Positions 1 to 9,359 of a stretch of 22,629 bases of DNA are shown piece after piece. The notes beneath the pieces were generated by a model, which did not search any database, was not told the origin of the DNA, and was given only the letters and a program-made list of their open reading frames with translations. The DNA comes from Spirulina sp. (lineage in GTDB: Bacteria > Cyanobacteriota > Cyanobacteriia > Phormidesmidales > Phormidesmidaceae). Each line of letters opens with the position of its first letter. Within the stretch, counting starts at the first letter, position 1. Position numbers and translations under genes: made by a program. The stretch spans positions 1-22,629 of the forward strand of contig JBIPSI010000051.1 of the NCBI GenBank assembly GCA_044070495.1, in the 5' to 3' direction.

Positions 1-13
1 AGGAGGTATAGGG

Positions 14-238
14 ATGCAGTGTCCTGAATGCGGTGGCACCCATATCCGTAAGAATGGGAAAAAGCAGGGTAAGCAAAATCACATTTGCGTGGCCTGTGGC
101 CGTCAGTTCATCGACCGATACGAACCCCATCGGGGCTATCCTAACGACGTCAAACGCGATTGCCTTCGTCAGTACGTCAATGGGTCTGGCTTCCGGGCCA
201 TCGAGCGCACGACCGGGGTGCATCACACTACTATCATC
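14..238 (+). pseudogene. IS1-family transposase N-terminal part (InsA-like zinc ribbon + HTH), truncated by an IS4-family element
   Basis: CPECGG...CVACGRQF zinc ribbon and GFRAIERTTGVHHTTII helix-turn-helix typical of cyanobacterial IS1. The frame runs into the IS4 inverted repeat at 238. No catalytic InsB part is present in the window. Confidence 0.85.
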
Positions 239-1553
239 CTGACTGCCTGACACATCTTTATGCGGCCTCCCAAGGGGGTAGCTGACACCGCACGGCCTGG
301 ATTCTAGAGAACCAGATGCGGTCATAATATTGGGCTTCCGCTTGTTTAGAGGCAAAACAGGGTTCAGGGTCAACGGTGAATAGGGGGATGGGTGTGAGCC
401 GTGGACGGCCTTTGTTGACCGCCCCCTTGAGCCATCGAAGGCCGATTTTGAGATAGCTAATACCCCGAATCCAATGGGGGTCAACCTGAGAGCGGAGGGC
501 ATCGCCTTGAACGGCCATGCCCTGGGTGGTGCCATAGAGGATGGCAACAGCCGCGACCAGGTAAAGACGCTCAAGGGCTTGGGCGGAGCGGATGCCGGAG
601 GCTTCGAGGTCAAAGACCCCCGATTTTGAATCCAAGAAAAGTTCCTCGACTCGGAACCGCAGGGCGTACTGCCAGAGGGTATTGAGGGACGGTGGTTCAT
701 CGGTAATGACGGCCCAAGGTTCCTTGACCCCTTTGACGTTGGCCAGAACGAGGTTGCAGCGCCAGCGCCCATCTGCCCACAAGCCAATGCCCTCATAGCA
801 TCGGGCTTCCCCCTTGGGGGGCCAAAGCGTGCCGACCTCAACCGGAAAACGACGGGGGCCATGCACCATGACGTCACTGGGCAAGCGTAAACCGTAATGC
901 CAGCGACTTTGGCTCAGCCACGCCAGCAGGTCATGGTTGGCAAACCCTCGGTCGGCTAACAGCATCCCGTCGGGGTACGACCGCAACAGCCGATGGGCCA
1001 ACCGCAGCATCGGCAAATACCGCTCTGTGCTGACGGTGGCACTCGAATGCTCCAAAACTCGCCACAGCAGGGGCACCGCCCGCCCACAACAGGTCACCGA
1101 TAGGTGAATCATGCAATACCGATTCCACAGCACCGTTGTATCGAGGGCTAGGTAGAGTCGCCGTCCCTTCCACCGATGGATAGCGGCCAAGACCAGGGGC
1201 ACGTACAGACTTTTGACCCGCACCCGACGATTGCTCATAAACCGCTGCCACCGTCGTTCGGTGCTTTGCGCTTGGCGGGCGCGACTGGGCCACATAGGCT
1301 TCCCACTCCGGCAGGCTCAACCGACCGCTGCACACCAGCGCCGTCACCATCCAGGCCAGCGCTTTGAGGTGCCGTAAATCCCGACGATGGCTATATTGAC
1401 GCAGCAATGACAGCACTTGATCATAGAGACAGGTGGTGGATGACATGGCAAAGACCCTGAGATACGCAAATTCCAGCGTCTCATGTCACCTCACCTTTTC
1501 CCCTCCCACCACGAGGTTTCAAGCCTTTCACCCACTTCTGTCAGGCAGTCAGG
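238..1553 (-). mobile_element. IS4-family insertion sequence (~1.3 kb) with perfect 15-bp terminal inverted repeats
   Basis: CCTGACTGCCTGACA at 238-252 and its exact reverse complement TGTCAGGCAGTCAGG at 1539-1553 enclose a DDE transposase. CTGA(C) ends resemble IS10/IS50, so the true ends may be 239 and 1552. The flanks are not duplicated. Confidence 0.9.
258..1446 (-). pseudogene. IS4-family DDE transposase, frameshifted near 1290
   Basis: N-terminus MSSTTCLYDQ...EWEAYV (frame of ORF 931..1446) continues as PSRARQAQSTERRW (frame of ORF 258..1295). An extra G in tat-gtg-g-ccc-agt explains the shift. DDE motifs ALDTT and ADRGF and the YREK signature YALRFRVEELFLDSK are present. Confidence 0.85.
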
Positions 1554-1582
1554 TGGTGGGCAGTGCCCACCCTACTTGCTAG
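1553..1582 (-). repeat. Inter-cassette repeat copy A (REP half only, cut by the IS); perfect GTAG-type REP
   Basis: GTGGTGGGCAGTGCCCACCCTACTTGCTAG. Minus strand reads GTAG-GGTGGGCA-C-TGCCCACC. It matches the right halves of copies B-D and overlaps the hicB stop codon. Confidence 0.85.
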
Positions 1583-1797
1583 GCGACTTGTAGAGTTCTG
1601 GGGACTGGGATAGGTTCTCCTTCGGCTTGCCATGCTTCTAGGTACATTTCGATAACTTCCTCTCCGTTGCGGATGGCTTCCTCGCGGGTTTTACCGTGGG
1701 TGCAGGGCATGATGACGAGTTCGGCGAATTCTGGAATGGTAACGAGAAAAAGCTGATCCTCATCTGACCATTGGACAATCATGCTGTATCGGTTCAT
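1579..1797 (-). CDS. hicB: HicB-family antitoxin
   Basis: YSMIVQWSDEDQLFLVTIPEF...CTHGKTREEAIRNGEEVIE is the HicB pattern. It overlaps hicA by 4 bp (ATGA). Confidence 0.9.
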   Translation of the reverse strand: MNRYSMIVQWSDEDQLFLVTIPEFAELVIMPCTHGKTREEAIRNGEEVIEMYLEAWQAEGEPIPVPRTLQVA

Positions 1798-2018
1798 GGG
1801 TTTTCCTCTTTTCTCAGGGTTTCTAGTTCGACGAGTAGGGTTGTGAGTTGTTTTTCGAGATAAAGGGGTACGTCGTCGCCATCTTTGCCAGGTATAGTTA
1901 GCGTTTTGCCGATGAGTGGGTGTCGCCAGCGTTCGTGGCTTCCTTTGCCTCGTTTGGGTAGGTAGACAAATCCTTCACGAGAAATCTGGGCTTTGAATTC
2001 TCGGATTTTTCTAGGCAT
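1794..2018 (-). CDS. hicA: HicA-family toxin (mRNA interferase)
   Basis: 74 aa basic protein with GF...RGKGSHERWRHP motif, directly upstream of hicB. Confidence 0.9.
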   Translation of the reverse strand: MPRKIREFKAQISREGFVYLPKRGKGSHERWRHPLIGKTLTIPGKDGDDVPLYLEKQLTTLLVELETLRKEENP

Positions 2019-2078
2019 GGAGGGTTTTTCTTAGAATTGAAGGATGAGGATAGATTATCTCGAGTCTAGTGGCTTGCG

Positions 2079-2151
2079 CTATGCCGTTGTAGAAAAGGGG
2101 CTGGTGATGGGATGTGGGTGGCGTGGTGGGCAGTGCCTACCTTACTTATAG
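2079..2151 (-). repeat. Inter-cassette repeat copy B
   Basis: CTATGCCGTTGTAGAAAAGGGGCTGGTGATGGGATG core (2079-2114) followed by GTGGTGGGCAGTGCCTACCTTACTT. It lies between the PIN stop codon and the hicA start. Confidence 0.9.
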
Positions 2152-2156
2152 AAAAT

Positions 2157-2543
2157 TCAGTCCCAAATGCGTTCAATTGGATAGGCGTCAAAGGCGGTAT
2201 CTACGCTGACGATGGTGAGAGCATGGCTGATTGACTGGGCGATTATGATGCGATCAAAGGGATCGCGGTGGTGTAGTGGCAGTTGGCTAAGTTTGATTGT
2301 ATCTTTAATTGAGATAGGTAGTAGTTGAAATCTGGTTGCATTGAATTTTGTTTCGATGTCGTTGAAGTCGGTGGCGAGGGCTAGTTTGCCTAGGGATAGT
2401 TTAATGGAGATTTCCCAGAAGCTTGCGATGCTAACGAATACATTATCGGTCTGTTCGATGCGATCTCGAAGGGGCATTGGTAGCATCGGATCGTCTTCGG
2501 AGAGCCAGATAAATGCGTGAGTGTCTAGCAAAAGAGAACTCAT
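2157..2543 (-). CDS. vapC: PIN-domain (VapC-type) toxin
   Basis: LLLDTHAFIW, SIASFWEISIK, HHRDPFDRIIIAQ and VSVDTAFDAY are PIN motifs. Confidence 0.92.
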   Translation of the reverse strand: MSSLLLDTHAFIWLSEDDPMLPMPLRDRIEQTDNVFVSIASFWEISIKLSLGKLALATDFNDIETKFNATRFQLLPISIKDTIKLSQLPLHHRDPFDRIIIAQSISHALTIVSVDTAFDAYPIERIWD

Positions 2544-2776
2544 TACATATAATCCTTAAAGTCTTCTAGTGGCTCGTTGAAGTCGTCTGGAAGGGGTAAG
2601 ACGAAGGTTCCTTTCATGGAGCCTGCTAGCGGTTGTTTTTGTGGAAGAGAAGCTGCTGCTTCTGGGCTGGGATTAGCGTATTGGCTAGCGAGAAACTCTG
2701 TATACAGAAAAACAGCTTGCTTGACGGAATCAGGCAGTTTTTCAATGTTCTTCAAAATTGCAGATTCTAGTGTCAT
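2543..2776 (-). CDS. DUF2281-type antitoxin (VapB-like)
   Basis: MTLESAILKNIEKLPDSVKQAVFLYTEFL...AGSMKGTFVLPLPDDFNEPLEDFKDYM. Its stop overlaps the PIN start (TAATG). ATG at 2776 is preferred to the TTG inside the repeat. Confidence 0.82.
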   Translation of the reverse strand: MTLESAILKNIEKLPDSVKQAVFLYTEFLASQYANPSPEAAASLPQKQPLAGSMKGTFVLPLPDDFNEPLEDFKDYM

Positions 2777-2816
2777 TAGTGAACCACCTATAGTTACTGA
2801 TGCCGTTACTCCTGAC

Positions 2817-2913
2817 TTTAGACTCTTTGCCAATAATTTCTATGCTGTTGTAGAAAACGGGCTGGTGATGGGATGTGGGCGGTGTGGTGGGCAGTGATTA
2901 CCCTGCTTGCTAG
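2817..2913 (-). repeat. Inter-cassette repeat copy C
   Basis: TTTAGACTCTTTGCCAATAATTTCTATGCTGTTGTAGAAAACGGGCTGGTGATGGGATG...GTGGTGGGCAGTGATTACCCTGCTTGCTAG. The core has 2 mismatches to copies B and D. It ends in the same CTTGCTAG as copy A. Confidence 0.9.
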
Positions 2914-2921
2914 TTTTCGGC

Positions 2922-3554
2922 CTATGTTTTCTTGTTAGAGATAGCAGTAAAAAGCTGAATTAAGCTCAGCAGATTAATGTCTCGCCAGTTGATAGCAACG
3001 GTGCTTTGCATGGTCAATTCACCTTGCTGAAGATCAAGGTTAAGGGCTGAGCCATCTTGGATGTTATGAAAGAGAGCATCGACTAAACGAAGTTGAGCTT
3101 TAGGAAGCATGTAATACACCAAATCGCCCTCTAGTCTGACACCTTCGGGTAGAGTTTGGCCGGGGATATAGCCACCAAGAAAGGTACTCCATCCGGAGAT
3201 AAGGATGCGATACATAAATGAAGAGGATTCAACTTGGGGCTTTTGGAGAAGGCGAAGCTGCCCTTCAACTAAATCGCCTTTGATACAGATTTTTTCAGGA
3301 ATGAAGTGAATTTTGGCTTTAATTTGGTTTTGCTCGATAGTGGCCAGCAACCCCTGTTGAGGATCTGGTTCTAGAGCAGTAAGTTGATCTACTCGCTGGA
3401 TGGTCTTTTGGCAAAGTAGCTCAACCGTTTTTGCTTTAAGCGTCAGGGCATGGGCAGGGGCATCGATAACGATGTAATCCTCCACCTGCTTCTGGAGCAG
3501 TTTGCCAGAGTTTTTGGCTGCGTTGCTGAGTTGATCAAAGAGTTTCATCGGCAT
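2922..3554 (-). CDS. Hypothetical protein (210 aa)
   Basis: Long open frame co-oriented with its neighbours, ending just before repeat C. No family recognised. Confidence 0.7.
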   Translation of the reverse strand: MPMKLFDQLSNAAKNSGKLLQKQVEDYIVIDAPAHALTLKAKTVELLCQKTIQRVDQLTALEPDPQQGLLATIEQNQIKAKIHFIPEKICIKGDLVEGQLRLLQKPQVESSSFMYRILISGWSTFLGGYIPGQTLPEGVRLEGDLVYYMLPKAQLRLVDALFHNIQDGSALNLDLQQGELTMQSTVAINWRDINLLSLIQLFTAISNKKT

Positions 3555-3641
3555 TTATCATCCACAATATGAATAGATTAAGACTTCTAACAGAATCACC
3601 CAACTTAGAAAACAGGCTTTCTCGTCTACTAAATCAGAATT

Positions 3642-4001
3642 TCAACGAATCAGATCTTGGTATAGATGTGCCGCTATTTCTTGATAAACTTCTGTGATTT
3701 TAATGGGATCAGTCAATCGAAAAAGATTTAAGATAGTTTGATTGAAAATGGGATCTTCATCAATTGCAAGAACTATTTCTAATTCTCCTGAAACTCTGAG
3801 TACATATAAAGAGGAATCATATTCACCTAGATCTAGAACGTGGGGAATACAATATAATAATTCCTGAAGATCATTGAAATCACTATCTGAAACAAGACTT
3901 GCAAAATCATTAATTTCACTGATAATTTCGTCTTTTCTGTCCTGGCTTAGGCGACGAAGATCCTGCTCAAAGGCTGCGGTTGACTCAATCAGGATATCCA
4001 T
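3642..4001 (-). CDS. Hypothetical protein, possible RelE/ParE-like fold
   Basis: ILIESTAAFEQDLRRL start and SSLYVLRVSGELEIVLAIDED resemble the RelE/ParE pattern, but the protein is acidic and has no adjacent antitoxin. Confidence 0.55.
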   Translation of the reverse strand: MDILIESTAAFEQDLRRLSQDRKDEIISEINDFASLVSDSDFNDLQELLYCIPHVLDLGEYDSSLYVLRVSGELEIVLAIDEDPIFNQTILNLFRLTDPIKITEVYQEIAAHLYQDLIR

Positions 4002-4059
4002 GGCAATCCAAGATACTAGACACCTAACTTTAGGGATAAGCAGCCGCTACTTGTTACGT

Positions 4060-5223
4060 TTAATTATAGTCTATCACCTGAGATAGAGAACTCGCTATGT
4101 AATAGCTTAGCTTTACGGGGACTGCGTTACCAATTTGCCGCATGGATTCTGTCCAGGCTCCGGTAATCCTGTAATGATCAGGAAAGGTTTGGAGGCGTTT
4201 GGCTTCAAGGGTTGTGAAATAGCGTATCTTGCCGTCTTGATAGCGAATCATATTTTCTCCGCCAGGAACGCCATGATCTCCGGCTTTGAGGGTTTTGGAT
4301 GGCATATCGATATAGCTTCCGGTGTGGCCTGGGTAGGCTCTAGCTCCTTCTCTCAGGATATGTTCAGCATCAAAACTGCCTTCAAGGTCGGGTTCTGGAA
4401 GATCGCTAAGTTGATCTCGGACAGTTTGCCACGGTTTTAGGGGAGGTGCAAATAGAGCGGGCTGTTGAGTAAGTTGCTGAATGCGTTGTTGAGTTTTTGT
4501 ATCTAAGTACTCGATACTTGAGGGCTTAATACCATGTTTCTCCCAATAGTCGCCGCTGACAAATTGTGACCATAGCAGAGAGTCTAGCGAGTGGGACTCT
4601 TTTGGAAAAGACCAAGCAACATTTAGATCTTCTCTGATGCCGACGATAAAGACCCGTTCACGACGTTGGGGAATTCCGTAGTTGGCGGCATCTAGAAGAC
4701 GAAAAATAACGTTATATTTTACTCCGCTATACTTTCCTGATGTGTGGATTTTTTCTAGCCTGATGAGGTGATCTTGCCAGGATTCTGATTCTTTGCAAGA
4801 AACTTCAGGGTATGTCAGTCTTAGAAGGATGTATTCAAAATAGTTGTTAAAGGATTTTCGGAGAAGTCCTTTAACGTTTTCAAAAATGAAGGCTTTAGGT
4901 GTACAAATGCTAATTGCTTTGCAGGCATAGGGAAACATATCACGTTGGTCGGTGTTCCCGCTGTGCTTTCCACCAATAGAAAAAGGTTGGCAGGGTGGGC
5001 CACCGGAGATGATATCGATATGACCAAACTGATTAAAATCAAAGGATCTAATATCTAAATTATGAATCAGTTGGCTGGGATAGTTTTTAGATAGCGTTTG
5101 ACAGGCATTTTTATTAATTTCAACTAGGGCTTTGTGCTGAATGCCAGCCATTTCTAAGCCCTTAGCGAGTCCTCCGGCTCCTGCAAATAATTCTAGACAA
5201 GATAGCTTAGACATTTTCTTCAC
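4060..5223 (-). CDS. DNA (cytosine-5) methyltransferase of a type II R-M system
   Basis: Motif I LELFAGAGG, IV GGPPCQPFS, VI FIFENVKG, VIII PQRRERVFIVG, IX EAKRLQTFP and X QIGNAVPV. It overlaps the end of the endonuclease gene. The start may be the ATG at 5214. Confidence 0.96.
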   Translation of the reverse strand: MKKMSKLSCLELFAGAGGLAKGLEMAGIQHKALVEINKNACQTLSKNYPSQLIHNLDIRSFDFNQFGHIDIISGGPPCQPFSIGGKHSGNTDQRDMFPYACKAISICTPKAFIFENVKGLLRKSFNNYFEYILLRLTYPEVSCKESESWQDHLIRLEKIHTSGKYSGVKYNVIFRLLDAANYGIPQRRERVFIVGIREDLNVAWSFPKESHSLDSLLWSQFVSGDYWEKHGIKPSSIEYLDTKTQQRIQQLTQQPALFAPPLKPWQTVRDQLSDLPEPDLEGSFDAEHILREGARAYPGHTGSYIDMPSKTLKAGDHGVPGGENMIRYQDGKIRYFTTLEAKRLQTFPDHYRITGAWTESMRQIGNAVPVKLSYYIASSLSQVIDYN

Positions 5224-5851
5224 TGTTCAATCTAGACATGAAAGTTTCAATGCTTTTGAGCAAGTCTTCTCGGTTGGCATGAATGCCTTGGCACTTTTCT
5301 GCCCAAGGACGGCCAGGGTGACAAACATCCCAGTCTGATTTGGCTTGTTCGTATCGACCTTTGCCGGGGTCATGATTACCAAAGCCGTCAATTAGAGTGT
5401 TCCAGATGGGTTGGTAGGTTCTAATGAGGGCGGCTTCTACGGTGCCGATTAGGTCGCTTTCTTTGCCTTCGAGGATCATGAAGCGGCAGAAGAAATCTTC
5501 CTTACCTAGATCTTGAGCCTGATCGATGCTGCGGCTATGTTCGTTAAGGCGGCTGTTTAGCTCGAAGCTACGAGTTTCGGATGAGGTTTGTCTAGCTTGT
5601 CGCCAGCCTTTGGGGACGGCTTTTCCGACATAGATGGGGATATGAAAGGCGGTTCTATTAATGGTATGAAATCTAGAATAGATGCCAGATTTAGCGATGC
5701 AGTATAGGGCATAAATTCCTGTGCCATGAAAGCGTTCTGGAACAGGGAGAGGATAGACGGGAGTGCCGTTGAAGAAGCGGATGGTATCTTTTATGATTTC
5801 ATCGAAGTCTGAAGAAGTATAGACGTGCTGAGAACGGTCAAATAGATTCAT
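5207..5851 (-). CDS. Eco29kI-family (GIY-YIG) type II restriction endonuclease
   Basis: GIYALY...PIYVGKAVP, RLNEH, VEAALI...PIWNTLIDGFGNHDPGKGR motifs as in Eco29kI/Cfr42I. 214 aa, adjacent to a C5 methyltransferase. Confidence 0.9.
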   Translation of the reverse strand: MNLFDRSQHVYTSSDFDEIIKDTIRFFNGTPVYPLPVPERFHGTGIYALYCIAKSGIYSRFHTINRTAFHIPIYVGKAVPKGWRQARQTSSETRSFELNSRLNEHSRSIDQAQDLGKEDFFCRFMILEGKESDLIGTVEAALIRTYQPIWNTLIDGFGNHDPGKGRYEQAKSDWDVCHPGRPWAEKCQGIHANREDLLKSIETFMSRLNSEENV

Positions 5852-5860
5852 AGATTAGGG

Positions 5861-5954
5861 TTTAGCGCTTTGCCAATAATTTCTATGCCGTTGTAGAAAA
5901 GGGGCTGGTGATGGGATGCGGATGGCATGGTAGACAGCGACCGCCCTGATTACT
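5861..5954 (-). repeat. Inter-cassette repeat copy D
   Basis: TTTAGCGCTTTGCCAATAATTT followed by a 36-bp core identical to copy B (5883-5918) and a degenerate REP half ATGGTAGACAGCGACCGCCCTGATTACT. It fills almost the whole gap between the GIY-YIG stop and the endonuclease start. Confidence 0.9.
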
Positions 5955-5962
5955 TTGGATTA

Positions 5963-6775
5963 TTAGTTAAAATTTCCTAGCTGGAGTAGTGTTTCAGAAA
6001 AACTTGAGCGCTCACAATTTGTAAACCCTAAACACAGGTAACTTTTCTTGAATTCAGAGAATCCTGGCATATCGTTAAGGACTACATAATCGCTTTTGAA
6101 GATTCTTGAATTTCCTCCATAAACTATAAAGACTGGATCATAGAGGCCGTTTTCTTCATAGCCATAAGGTATAAAGCAACTGATTAGAATATAAATTCTT
6201 TCTCGCCTGTATTTTTCTAGAATTGATAGGTCGTAGTCCTGTGCATTTTCGTAATCCTCAAAAATCCCAGAGGCAATCAAGAAAATTGGTCTTGAATCAC
6301 TAACTGCCTTCGTTATCATAGTCAACTTGCCTGTGTTTACTCCTAATTCATCACCGTTTTCAGCATCAAAGTGAGCACAGTAACCAGATTCTTTTACATT
6401 ATGAATTTGAACATATACTGGGCCGTGTACAGTTTTAGGGTTAGGATCGCAAGGCACAGATGTATTGTTAATGGGTGGATTGTAGAAGTCTATAGCCTGT
6501 TTCTCAAGCCTTTTCAGGGATTGATCAACATCTTGAATTTTCTCTACCATTTTTGGTGGCAATGTTCTAAAACGAATCTCTACATCGCTAATAGACTCAA
6601 ACTGACTCTTTCGATGGTGATTGATATGTCTTGCCTTTAAATTTCTTGAGAGGCCAACATACATTACAGGCTCGTTTAAGTTGCCAACAAAGTAGATTCC
6701 AGGTAAAGATGGTAAGCCTTGACGTTGGCTATAAGAAAGGCAGGACATCTGCTTCCAGTGAAGATTTAGTTTCAT
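5963..6775 (-). CDS. GIY-YIG nuclease-domain protein with unrecognised C-terminal domain
   Basis: LPSLPGIYFV...MYVGLSRNLKARH...LEKQAIDFYNPPIN. ATG at 6775 is preceded by a GAGGT Shine-Dalgarno sequence. Confidence 0.85.
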   Translation of the reverse strand: MKLNLHWKQMSCLSYSQRQGLPSLPGIYFVGNLNEPVMYVGLSRNLKARHINHHRKSQFESISDVEIRFRTLPPKMVEKIQDVDQSLKRLEKQAIDFYNPPINNTSVPCDPNPKTVHGPVYVQIHNVKESGYCAHFDAENGDELGVNTGKLTMITKAVSDSRPIFLIASGIFEDYENAQDYDLSILEKYRRERIYILISCFIPYGYEENGLYDPVFIVYGGNSRIFKSDYVVLNDMPGFSEFKKSYLCLGFTNCERSSFSETLLQLGNFN

Positions 6776-6957
6776 CGACTTACCTCTGGCAGGTTGCGTT
6801 TTGCTAGATAAGGTATCTAGAAGGCACCTCAAAAAATACAAGCCTTATTGAGAATAAAAATGAGATCCCAATGGTTTTGGATTCCAAAAATTCGCAATAA
6901 GATAATTGATTGAGGTGCCCTAGACGTTATCGAGCCTGGTTATTTCCGTTACCAACT

Positions 6958-8382
6958 CTACCGATACACCTCCCGAATCACACCCCCATCAGCCGCCACC
7001 AGTTGTACATGGAGCGGCATTTGCCCTGCGGCGTGGGTGGAGCAGGAGAGGCAGGGGTCGTAGCAGCGGATTCCGGCTTCGACGCGGTTGAGAAAGCCTT
7101 CGGGAATGTCTTCGCTGTGGATGTAGTGTTTGGCGATTTGGGTGACGGTTTTGTTCATGGCCAGGTTGTTTTGGCCCGTGGCGATGATCAGGTTCACCTT
7201 TTGGACGAGGCCGTTGTCGTCTACTTTGTAGTGGTGGAAGAGGGTGCCACGGGGGGCTTCGCTGACGCCGACCGCTTCTAGGGCGTTGACTCCAGCGTGG
7301 GCGCGGACGCGGGTGGAGAGGATGTCGGGGTCATCCATGAGGATTTGGATGTGCTCTAGGCAGGCGAGGATTTCCACCAGGCGGGCGTAGTGGTAGAGGA
7401 AGGAGGAGGTGGGTACGCCGCCCGCGTAGTCGCGCAGGTTTTGCAGTTCGGCGTCGGCTTGGGGGGTGCCGATGCGGTCGCAGACGTTGAGCCGCGCCAG
7501 GGGGCCGACGCGGTAGATGCCGTCGGGGTAGCCCATCGGCTTGTAGTAGGGGAATTTGAGGTACGACCAGTTTTCGACCGCTTCGCCGAGGAAGGTTTGG
7601 TAGTCGTCTTCGCTGAGGCCATCGGCGACGATGTTGCCGCTGCTGTCGGAGAAGCGCAGGTGGCCGTCGTAGTGTTCCCAGAGGCCATCTTTGCCGACCA
7701 GGCCCATGAACAGGGAGGGAAACTCGCCAAAAATGCCCACTTCTTCCTTCATGGGGCCGCTGATTAGCCCTTTGAAGATGTCGAGGGCTTTGCGGATGGT
7801 GGCGAAGGATTCGGGCAGGCGGTCTACGATCCAGGCGCGGCCTTCTTCGCTGAGGGGTTCGCGGACGCCACCGGGCACTGTCCAGGCGGCGTGGATTTTG
7901 CGGCCACCGAGGATTTCGATAACTTTCTGGCCAAACTGGCGCAGACGAATTCCGGCGCGGGCCAGGTCGGGGTCGGCGGCGATCAGGCCAAAGACGTTGC
8001 GTTTGGCGGGGTCGCTATCCCAGCCCAGCAAAAAGTCGGGGCTGCTGAGGTGGAAGAAGGAGAGGGCGTGGGACTGGGTGAGCTGGCCCAGATTCATCAG
8101 GCGGCGCAGTTTGTCGGCGGTTTCAGGAATTTTCACCGCTAGGATTTTGTCGCCGGTTTTGGCGGAGCAAATCAGGTGGCTGACCGGGCAAATGCCGCAG
8201 ATGCGGGCGGTGATGCCAGCCATTTCGGTGTAGGGACGGCCCTCGCAGAACTTTTCAAACCCCCGATATTCCACCACATGGAACTGGGCATTGGAGACGT
8301 TGCCCGCATCATCCAAGAAGACCGAAATTTTGGCGTGGCCTTCGATGCGAGTAACGGGGTCGATAACTACGGTTTTTGCCAT
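6958..8382 (-). CDS. hoxH: Bidirectional [NiFe]-hydrogenase large subunit
   Basis: [11 protein letters not shown]1 motif RICGICP, L2 motif DPCLSCSTH followed by a cleavable C-terminal extension. Confidence 0.98.
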
Positions 8383-8393
8383 GGTGGGGTCTC

Positions 8394-8550
8394 CGGGGGG
8401 AGTGGGTGGATGGGGTGGTGGGGTGGTGGGGTGGTGGGTGGGGTAGTGAGGAGGGGGAAATGAGATGGGAGAAAGATCGAGTCAATGACTATCTCGCCAT
8501 CCCACTACCTCGTTATCCCGCTATCTCACGACCTCGCCACCCCACTATCC
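8394..8550. repeat. G-rich short tandem repeats followed by complementary C-rich units
   Basis: (GGGGTGGT)n-like tract at about 8400-8457 and CCCCACTA/CTCGCCAC-type units at about 8493-8550, between the CP12 gene and hoxH. Confidence 0.65.
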
Positions 8551-8553
8551 CAA

Positions 8554-8787
8554 TTAGCTGTCGTACATCAAGCCTTCGATGGCTTCGGGGTTTTCTTCGA
8601 GGTACTTGTCAAAGCCGGTTTGCTTGGGCTTTTGGTGTTGGTGAGACACTTCGGCCCGCATTTCTTCGACGGCATCCCAGGCGGCGGCGGCTTCGGGGGA
8701 GGTTTCGCCCTTCTCAGCCGTTACTTGGTGAGCATAGTCGATGGCCTTTTGTAGCTCTTCATTGAACTCTTTGCTGTCAACGCTCAT
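8554..8787 (-). CDS. cp12: CP12-domain protein lacking all cysteines
   Basis: Core AAAWDAVEEM and a C-terminal FDKYLEENPEAIEGLMYD, where canonical CP12 has YCxxNPxAxECxxYD. GGAGG Shine-Dalgarno sequence upstream. Confidence 0.88.
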   Translation of the reverse strand: MSVDSKEFNEELQKAIDYAHQVTAEKGETSPEAAAAWDAVEEMRAEVSHQHQKPKQTGFDKYLEENPEAIEGLMYDS

Positions 8788-8807
8788 GGTTGTTCCTCCT
8801 AATCGAA

Positions 8808-9359
8808 CTATCCGAATTTAATCATTTCGCGTCCTACCATGTCGGGCTGTTGCCCGTGGAGTAGCGGTTCAATGGTAGCCCGGATGCGATCAGCAGAGGG
8901 AGGGCAACCCGGCATAAAGATGTCTACAGGCACAATTTCGTGGACGGGGGTGACGCGATCCATCAGCTCTGGCACGATGCCGGGGGCGTGGGGAAGCTGG
9001 GCGTTTTCGTCCGCCAGTTCTAGGTAGCCCCGCTTGAGCACACCCTCGGCGCTGTTGCGGAGCATATTCCGCATGGCGGGCACGTTGGCGGTGACGGCGC
9101 AGTCGCCAAAGGAGATCAGCAGCTTGGTTTTGCGGCGCACTTCGTAGATCAACTCTAGGTTGTCTTCGTTGGCAATCGCCCCTTCCACCAGGCACACATC
9201 CACGTTGTTGGGATACTCCTTCAGGTCGCAGCCCACGGGGCTATAGACCACCTCCACCAAGTCGGCCAGGTCGATTAAAAACTCATCCAAATCTAAAAAC
9301 GACATGTGGCAGCCCGAACAACCCGCCAGCCATACCGTGGCAAACCTTATCTTGTCCAT
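8808..9359 (-). CDS. hoxY: Bidirectional hydrogenase small subunit
   Basis: WLAGCSGCHMS, FGDCAVT and PGCPP motifs. Confidence 0.97.
   Translation of the reverse strand: MDKIRFATVWLAGCSGCHMSFLDLDEFLIDLADLVEVVYSPVGCDLKEYPNNVDVCLVEGAIANEDNLELIYEVRRKTKLLISFGDCAVTANVPAMRNMLRNSAEGVLKRGYLELADENAQLPHAPGIVPELMDRVTPVHEIVPVDIFMPGCPPSADRIRATIEPLLHGQQPDMVGREMIKFG

Follow-up and report, generated by a model that had tools for sequence, protein, structure and literature searches.

PeSLs (promoter-early stem-loops), the composite stem-loop and promoter motifs of T4-like phages, lie between small genes and are described as mediating modular shuffling by homologous recombination and as forming mini-circles (PMC2839356, PMC4122927). 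In cyanobacteria, GTAG-tagged families of repetitive extragenic palindromic (REP) elements accompanied by a REP-associated HUH transposase (RAYT) have already been catalogued (PMC3733652). We analyzed a locus that resembles both in part: a 22,629-nt stretch of DNA from a Spirulina sp. (contig JBIPSI010000051.1), in which a direct repeat of ~95 nt stands between small defense modules behind the gene hoxH. Comparison with related sequences points to a lineage-restricted, hoxH-anchored variable defense island that would be reshuffled by homologous recombination between linker repeats, a reading to which we assign a probability of roughly 0.5.

The stretch (the window) is the whole of contig C51 of the 5.3-Mb assembly of the source genome, G000. 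It was compared with three array-bearing genomes of the same genus (G005, G019, and G050) and with two array-bearing metagenome contigs (L056 and L058). Four direct repeats at module borders had been proposed from the letters of the window, and repeat finding together with a BLAST search of the genome showed them to be real and not the product of chance:

5861..5954, minus strand: repeat copy D, between the GIY-YIG and Eco29kI modules; BLAST E = 7.9e-20; a first-position copy
2817..2913, minus strand: repeat copy C, between a 210-amino-acid (aa) open reading frame (ORF) and DUF2281-PIN; the BLAST query, E = 5.4e-45
2079..2151, minus strand: repeat copy B, between PIN and HicAB; BLAST E = 5.1e-19
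1553..1582, minus strand: repeat copy A, REP part only, truncated by the end of an insertion sequence (IS); BLAST E = 2.8e-3

Repeat finding recovered the long copies at 2064-2150, 2825-2911, and 5868-5954, with 72-100% identity over 87 nt in register, and a 30-nt family at 1553-1582, 2123-2152, and 2884-2913 (77-100% identical). Copy C searched against the 5.3-Mb genome (E ≤ 10) matched 27 places; four of them are the copies of the window (E between 5.4e-45 and 2.8e-3), the remaining 23 were noise (E ≥ 0.24, at most 34 nt), and no copy was found in hoxH. Copy D was the most diverged copy of the window (at most 0.74 identity to any other left half). Copy B lacks ~10 nt of its right end, and so does the copy that precedes HicAB in G050.

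The anchor gene and the modules between the repeats are as follows:

6958..8382, minus strand: hoxH, the conserved anchor; homology between arrays stops at its stop codon
5963..6775, minus strand: GIY-YIG domain protein of 270 aa (PF01541, 4.1e-6), the first module behind hoxH
4060..5851, minus strand: type II restriction-modification module, with an Eco29kI-family endonuclease at 5207-5851 (PF09517, 5.6e-70) and a C5 methylase at 4060-5223 (PF00145, 1.3e-63)
2922..4001, minus strand: two ORFs without a family, of 119 aa (3642-4001) and 210 aa (2922-3554)
2157..2776, minus strand: DUF2281 antitoxin-like and PIN module, DUF2281 at 2543-2776 (PF10047, 8.6e-16) and PIN at 2157-2543 (PF01850, 5.9e-17)
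1579..2018, minus strand: HicAB module, hicA at 1794-2018 (PF07927, 5.1e-10) and hicB at 1579-1797 (PF15919, 2.6e-6)

The repeat occurs in direct orientation throughout, and the modules all share the orientation of the hox genes. On the minus strand, copy A and the stop codon of hicB (ORF end at 1579) overlap; copy B runs from 6 nt past the stop of PIN (2157) to 60 nt ahead of the hicA ATG (2018), copy C from ~8 nt past the end of the 210-aa ORF (stop at 2922) to 40 nt ahead of the DUF2281 ATG (2776), and copy D from ~8 nt past the GIY-YIG stop (5963) to 9 nt ahead of the Eco29kI ATG (5851). The cassette-like layout proposed by the sequence-only reading was supported, as was the higher AT content of the modules (36-47% G+C at 2001-7000 vs. 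56-62% in the hox genes). Its claim that the repeat delimits the modules held at the borders described, but four junctions within 1553-6950 have no repeat: those of hoxH with GIY-YIG, of the methylase with the 119-aa ORF, and of the 119-aa with the 210-aa ORF, and those of gene pairs inside modules. Repeat-free junctions were also found elsewhere, between the 210-aa ORF and DUF4160 and, in G005, between an endonuclease and HicB.

Judged from its sequence matches, the repeat is a composite linker of ~95 nt, in which a REP-family head is joined to an array-specific tail. The head (~25-55 nt) is one more copy of the REP hairpin that is dispersed in the genus, and it consists of the GTAG tag, a hairpin with an 8-bp stem, and a C-rich tail. 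The 17-nt palindrome that heads the repeat occurs perfectly 77 times in G000, and a 21-mer that includes the GTAG tag has 154 matches there with up to 3 mismatches. The linker tail (~35-60 nt) is found only in the array in the G000 genome: a profile built from the right 62 nt matched three places (E ≤ 2.2e-12), each of them within the array, and the next best match had E = 0.062. When a 91-nt copy was searched in 173 genomes of the order, matches were obtained in 58, including 41 of the 52 other genomes of the genus, and nearly all of them were limited to the first ~30-56 nt. The array-specific part matched 12 of the 173 genomes at E ≤ 0.01. Strong matches (E ≤ 8.6e-15, 11 places) were restricted to G000, G005, G019, and G050, and the other eight genomes had single matches of 22-30 nt (E = 1.9e-5 to 7e-3). 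No other species have HoxH ends as similar as those of the four array genomes (98-100% amino-acid identity). Beyond them, the full repeat was found on two metagenome contigs and on short contigs from four metagenome runs, always behind hoxH. Genome-wide scattering of the core, named beforehand as an observation that would speak against the proposed cassette capture, was found for half of the element: the left 25-55 nt are the dispersed REP, and the right part is array-only. A dispersed MITE (a miniature transposable element with inverted repeats) or REP, considered as the identity of the whole repeat, was ruled out for the right part and accepted for the left.

In G000, a REP-transposase locus (REPtron) lies on contig C3, where a Y1/HUH transposase match (PF01797; C3:236416-236727, in a 177-aa ORF) stands between REP copies in opposite orientations at C3:236136 (+), 236160 (−), and 237008 (−). 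Comparable REP clusters with a RAYT-like ORF were found in G053 (C22) and G054 (C3), with a C-rich tail behind the hairpin. A second linker family was also noticed, made up of three direct copies of ~110 nt (G000:C8:16132-17739; locus L120, 6132-7739) that are 67-70% identical to the reference copy; it has the same REP hairpin head and an unrelated tail, lies downstream of icd, and brackets ORFs of 180 and 107 aa. Part of this C8 region shares 75% identity with what lies behind HicB where the G005 array ends. A pattern scan of genome contigs returned 6 stretches (3 from one Phormidium record and 3 partial and chance-like, one within a dprA-like gene); the corresponding metagenome scan returned 9 stretches, with true arrays in 2.

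Six arrays were compared (R, repeat). The G050 array lies on a 4.3-Mb contig, so that this locus is complete; the G005 array is spread over two contigs.

G000: hoxH; GIY-YIG; R; Eco29kI, methylase, 119 aa, 210 aa; R; DUF2281, PIN; R; HicAB; R (cut)
G005: hoxH; AriA/OLD/GajA-like ATPase; R; MNT-HepT; R; antitoxin, PIN_3; R; Eco29kI, methylase ... 118 aa, 210 aa, DUF4160, DUF2442; R (half); Eco57I-type methylase with BsuBI/PstI endonuclease, HicB; end
G050: hoxH; 1053-aa ATPase with a PRTase-CE domain; R; antitoxin, PIN_3; R; HicAB, DUF2442 remnant; core gene
G019: hoxH; 127 aa ...; on another contig, antitoxin, PIN; R; DUF4160, DUF2442; R; truncated Eco29kI; core genes
L056: hoxH; 127 aa, 111 aa (dynamin-like 753 aa, 352 aa, 283 aa), 208 aa, DUF4160, DUF2442; R (half); MNT-HepT; R; antitoxin, PIN_3; R; Eco29kI, methylase; R; 112 aa, PIN; R; MNT ...
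L058: hoxH; Csx27-like membrane protein; R; MNT-HepT; R; 112 aa ...

The comparison of relatives that had been suggested showed differences in both module content and module order, with breakpoints inside the repeat. The 18 complete junctions comprised 16 different neighbor pairs. The Eco29kI module had three kinds of upstream neighbor, MNT-HepT four, PIN_3 two, and HicAB two. In G005, a block of MNT-HepT, PIN_3, and Eco29kI stands ahead of the 210-aa/DUF4160-DUF2442 block; in L056 it stands behind that block. MNT is present twice in L056, and every array holds modules found in none of the others; the GIY-YIG module was seen only in G000, and the other arrays start with other modules. The two ORFs without a family were found together in G005, L056, and G019 as well. 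Because the same modules occur in differing orders among related strains, the linker is a swap point.

The stop codon of hoxH is the exact point at which homology among the arrays breaks off, and in 6/6 arrays the first module has no preceding repeat. The closest array-less relatives, G004 and G044, carry unrelated GC-rich sequence behind hoxH. On the far side, the core DNA differs among G050, G019, and G005 (L043 8200-9500, L038 8400-9300, and L039 4546-4649) and shows ~75% identity to three different contigs of G000, which places the array at a break in gene order. In L056, four genes (111 aa, a dynamin-like GTPase of 753 aa, 352 aa, and 283 aa; 688-5309) lie between the 127-aa and 208-aa ORFs, with no repeat on either side; the counterparts of these flanking ORFs are adjacent in the window, and the 352-aa and 283-aa ORFs have no family. 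The four-gene insert may be an undescribed defense system.

The swap point could be narrowed further:

5870..5912 (in copy D), minus strand: exchange core of ~43 nt, from loose contig ends at 5870 and 5912 and from alignments of the copies

The core is near-invariant across all aligned copies; its left flank belongs to the REP family, and its right flank follows the downstream module. Flank identities were compared among 18 copies, copy A being left out. The 44 nt to the right of the core were 0.83 identical in pairs that shared the downstream module (17 pairs) and 0.56 identical in pairs with different downstream modules, both when the upstream module was the same (7 pairs) and when neither module was shared (129 pairs). 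The 46 nt to the left were 0.78 identical in pairs with the same upstream module (9 pairs), 0.67 identical when only the downstream module was common (15 pairs), and 0.69 identical when neither was (129 pairs). The effect of the upstream module on the left flank is weak. Most copies are alike in their left part, and the clear example of the effect is the degenerate hairpin found behind DUF2442 in three different contexts.

Joins to other modules were also seen in metagenomes, on short assembled contigs with at least 85% likeness to the window that came from four runs of four studies of mixed communities; relatives were found in communities of freshwater and groundwater. Contigs with a loose end at 5870 pass from the core into the PIN_3 leader, and one contig with a loose end at 5912 passes from the degenerate DUF2442 left half through the core into Eco29kI. 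Some contigs carry the junction of the 210-aa ORF with DUF4160 (2918), and an 822-nt contig runs from the end of the methylase through 123 nt to DUF2281-PIN, without the two ORFs of the window that have no family. The joints 1976 to 5874, 2893 to 1564, and 2897 to 6958 were set aside, as their shorter side has 21-35 letters and lies within repeats.

The comparison of left halves covered 16 copies, without copy A and the two degenerate copies of the DUF2442 type. Those of internal copies were 0.85-0.97 identical regardless of the preceding module. First-position copies were the most diverged, with best matches of 0.74, 0.71, and 0.79 for three of them and 0.88 for the remaining one. Concerted evolution in a tandem family would be expected to leave such divergence in the copies at the edge. 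A mutual closest relationship of the G000 and G050 first-position copies was considered and rejected, since neither is among the other's top four matches.

A further sign of recombination comes from inside one module. Between G005 and L056 (L037 11472-12906 vs. L056 8170-9958), identity is 99.5% for the Eco29kI genes but falls to 91.9% for the methylase genes that overlap them; HoxH-end identities between array genomes are 87-97%. A mosaic of this kind within a module indicates that gene conversion between relatives operates here.

These comparisons bear on the possibility that the repeat is a static regulatory or RNA-processing spacer (a terminator or stabilizer hairpin with a leader) that is inherited vertically, the arrays having arisen by differential deletion from one long ancestor. 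Its position just past stop codons and ahead of start codons would suit such a role, as would the proposal that REPs act as terminators or mRNA stabilizers (PMC3733652), and both the narrow, vertical range and module identities that roughly track that of hoxH are consistent with descent from a single array. One-way loss from a common array is nevertheless insufficient, because the orders of G005 and L056 are not colinear and MNT is doubled in L056; it also fits poorly with modules peculiar to each array and with the mosaic of 99.5% and 91.9% identity. A consensus scan saw neither a promoter nor a gene-strand terminator in the repeat, and there was no sign of a conserved RNA structure. We consider a purely static spacer highly improbable.

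In the reading that we prefer, reshuffling by homologous recombination between linkers, the exchanges would be carried out by the general homologous recombination of the cell. The linker would supply portable homology, the part that PeSL motifs play in T4-like phages. Possible routes are unequal crossing-over, loop-out and re-entry of circles with one linker, and swaps after uptake of DNA from relatives. Wholly new genes would arrive through illegitimate, unrelated events, for the most part right behind hoxH, and would become open to shuffling because of the linker downstream of them. The narrow range of the array-specific part (4/173 genomes of the order, one locus) was counted in favor of this reading.

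The sequence-only reading had gone further, with modules acquired one at a time at a site regenerated at each insertion. This was not borne out: many junctions are repeat-free, and in 6/6 arrays the first module directly adjoins the hoxH stop, neither of which is expected of a regenerated capture site. Among the mechanisms that it had offered, repeat-guided homologous recombination is the one that we rank first, whereas a trans-acting recombinase found no support. With homologous recombination in first place, the locus is less novel than an undescribed system of cassette capture.

Several observations weigh against shuffling by homology. A near-invariant 43-nt core within a less conserved repeat would also fit a recombinase site, and the direct copies, the co-oriented modules, and the unit itself (a short leader, genes, and a long 3′ site) mirror an integron cassette. 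The diverged left halves of the first-position modules could have come with those modules from unsampled arrays. Homology alone leaves the first arrival of the linker behind many unrelated modules without explanation. PeSLs carry a promoter and a terminator, and neither was found here on the gene strand: a consensus scan of the repeat gave no promoter-like site in any copy and no gene-strand terminator, in a crude scan from whose consensus cyanobacterial promoters deviate. The evidence is, moreover, entirely comparative and comes from few related arrays.

The competing view is of a site-specific cassette system analogous to integrons, in which each module has a 3′ site, an unlinked enzyme acts within the ~43-nt core, and circles are excised and re-inserted. 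The cassette-like unit structure with its narrow exchange core, the direct copies, and the co-orientation of the modules speak for it; in addition, the most novel modules are in first position, as in integrons. The core also contains a 6-bp inverted repeat with an 8-nt spacer. We gave it little weight: its occurrence is close to chance (an estimate of ~0.07), and some copies break it with no compensating change.

The architecture of integron sites is missing from the repeat, as had been proposed. Single-strand folding of copies B, C, and D on both strands gave no significant hairpin (z = +0.09 to +0.95; 110-168 of 200 shuffles fold as well), and the covariation term of an RNAalifold consensus of 14 copies was −0.01. 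A search of window positions 1-9000 against Rfam (E ≤ 1) returned 8 weak matches to eukaryotic miRNA and snoRNA families, none inside a repeat. The same genome has a bona fide integron integrase (C33:338-1306, locus L060; TIGR02249, 466 bits vs. a cut-off of 265). Three tandem units of 41 nt (about 136-260) precede this intI gene, and the start of contig C33 (1-47) holds an attC-like site whose fold is a long hairpin with bulges (z = −2.0 and −2.3); a comparable one at the intI homolog of G005 gave z = −2.2 and −2.8. The integrase lies at the start of its contig, and its cassette array is off the contig. Since the folding test detects attC-like sites beside intI, the failure of the hoxH repeat is meaningful in this genome.

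No integrase lies in the window, in agreement with the earlier statement: the genome has five PF00589 matches, none of them on C51, and PF00239 and PF01797 gave no match on that contig either. Neither intI nor attI was found at the array, the integrase being elsewhere (C33). Candidate enzymes for a system acting in trans would be this IntI, a conserved tyrosine-recombinase-like protein of ~400 aa, or something unrecognized. Of the tyrosine, serine, and HUH recombinases that were looked at, none co-occurred with the array, contrary to what the trans-acting proposal would lead one to expect. Homologs of IntI are present in 29/53 genomes of the genus but are missing from G050 and G019, two of the four array genomes. 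The complete G050 locus contains no recombinase from hoxH to the core gene, and the whole genome has two PF00589 matches only, one ~53 kb from the locus and one weak and core-like. Serine recombinases and Y1 transposases showed no array-specific pattern, being present in genomes with and without the array. Other candidates were rejected as well: the tyrosine recombinase on C15 of G000 has no close ortholog in G005, G019, or G050; a serine recombinase of 498 aa is present in G050 and G005 and was not found in G000 or G019; and the 210-aa ORF, considered as a hidden recombinase, has no family match and only hypothetical proteins among its language-model neighbors.

An integron analog is further disfavored by the absence of any part of the site 5′ of the first modules, by the many site-free junctions, and by its restriction to one locus in 4/173 genomes. 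We regard it as rather unlikely. Doubtful to the same degree is the more specific proposal that the linker is the REP-derived site of an undescribed cassette system, with a trans-acting enzyme (a tyrosine recombinase or a RAYT) at the ~43-nt core. If it were true, a REP-derived cassette site would be a structure-free analog of integrons in cyanobacteria, and a domesticated REP would have been co-opted for gene capture.

The REP head raises another explanation, that a RAYT moves the modules as single strands through the GTAG tag and the hairpin at the head of every linker, much as subterminal hairpins are used by IS200/IS605-type elements. The hairpin of the linker head is identical to the dispersed REP (the 77 perfect palindromes of G000), the Y1 transposase gene at C3:236416-236727 lies between REP copies, and cleavage at GTAG is reported (PMC3733652). 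Two junctions without a repeat fall directly after a GTAG tag (the distal end of the G005 array and the methylase/119-aa junction of the window), and hoxH itself ends in GTAG; these GTAG-adjacent junctions are hints of some RAYT involvement at the edges of the array. The exchange points, however, map not to GTAG but to the core, which begins to be reached some 40-80 nt downstream of the hairpin, and modules that follow DUF2442 still shuffle despite a degenerate hairpin. RAYT-type genes are equally present in the array-less G004 and G044. RAYTs are considered to be domesticated, and they are not known to mobilize cargo genes. Transposition of the modules by a RAYT is therefore, in our estimate, very unlikely.

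The remaining features of the window concern the labels of the modules, the distal end of the array, and the spacer upstream of hoxH. The HicB, HicA, PIN, DUF2281, C5 methylase, Eco29kI, and GIY-YIG labels given by the sequence-only reading all agreed with Pfam, whereas its RelE-like label for the 119-aa ORF found no backing (no match in Pfam, NCBIfam, or PADLOC); the 210-aa ORF had no match in the same three resources. One further element lies at the distal end:

238..1553, minus strand: insertion sequence with perfect 15-nt inverted ends (238-252 and 1539-1553) and a DDE transposase (PF01609, 2.1e-7)

The transposase of this IS is split over two overlapping frames (258-1295 and 931-1446). 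Because the IS cuts copy A, the distal end of the array is lost in this assembly. At the end of the contig (14-250) there is a fragment of an IS1-type InsA-like zinc-ribbon ORF, and the 1.3-kb IS stands between this fragment and copy A. The spacer upstream of hoxH has G-rich short tandem units (8411-8436) with a C-rich inverted partner (8527-8552), which gave only sub-threshold matches to miRNA families in Rfam.

Defense islands are known to differ from strain to strain, but outside integrons little is known of how their small modules are reassorted. At this locus the swap point is narrowed to ~43 nt of a linker built on a REP of the host, and the same few modules can be traced through at least six arrangements in close relatives. 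The locus poses the question of whether a plain repeat and RecA are enough for integron-like shuffling or whether a hidden enzyme takes part. If plain homology suffices, similar linker arrays may be common and yet overlooked, because tools based on attC are blind to them. In a limited literature search, we found no description of an array of such REP-headed linkers.

Among known systems, the islands that resemble staphylococcal cassette chromosomes (SCC) differ in that the hoxH-array repeat is not copied from the end of the anchor gene; serine recombinases are absent from the locus and are not specific to the array. The pdif modules of Acinetobacter plasmids use 28-bp XerC/XerD sites in alternating orientation, whereas the copies of the hoxH array are all direct, ~95 nt long, and without a dif-like site. 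The pdif system is similar in its small toxin-antitoxin and accessory modules, its short repeated site, and reshuffling between replicons by a housekeeping enzyme in place of one that the element itself encodes, as it is described (PMC6449649).

Integrons, sedentary chromosomal arrays, and clusters of attC sites lacking an integron integrase (CALINs) share with this locus a co-oriented array, a cargo of toxin-antitoxin and restriction-modification genes, a repeat after the modules, and units composed of a leader, genes, and a 3′ site. Integrons also share a module order that varies among strains, with the newest-looking modules at the head. They differ from it in that the hoxH-array repeat has neither the attC hairpin nor R and L boxes and that neither intI nor attI is at the array. 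Many of its modules, moreover, are multi-gene, many junctions have no site, and the true intI is elsewhere, with a different, hairpin-forming site.

The PeSL regions of T4-like phages are alike in that short composite stem-loop repeats stand between the small non-essential modules of a hyperplastic region (PMC2839356, PMC4122927), and in that recombination between copies accounts, in these descriptions, for insertions, deletions, and replacements between close relatives with no dedicated recombinase. The hoxH array differs in being a locus of a bacterial chromosome and not of a phage, in having the host's own REP as its stem-loop, and in that the crude scan found no sigma-70-type promoter or U-tract terminator in the repeat. 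With REP/RAYT systems the locus shares the first 25-55 nt of the linker, which belong to the REP family of the genus: they have the GTAG tag and a hairpin with a short loop, they lie downstream of ORFs, and copies flank a RAYT gene, much as in the catalogued families (PMC3733652). REPs, however, are ~20-40 nt long and dispersed, whereas here the element is fused to 35-60 nt of single-locus sequence, and it is the composite that marks the module borders.

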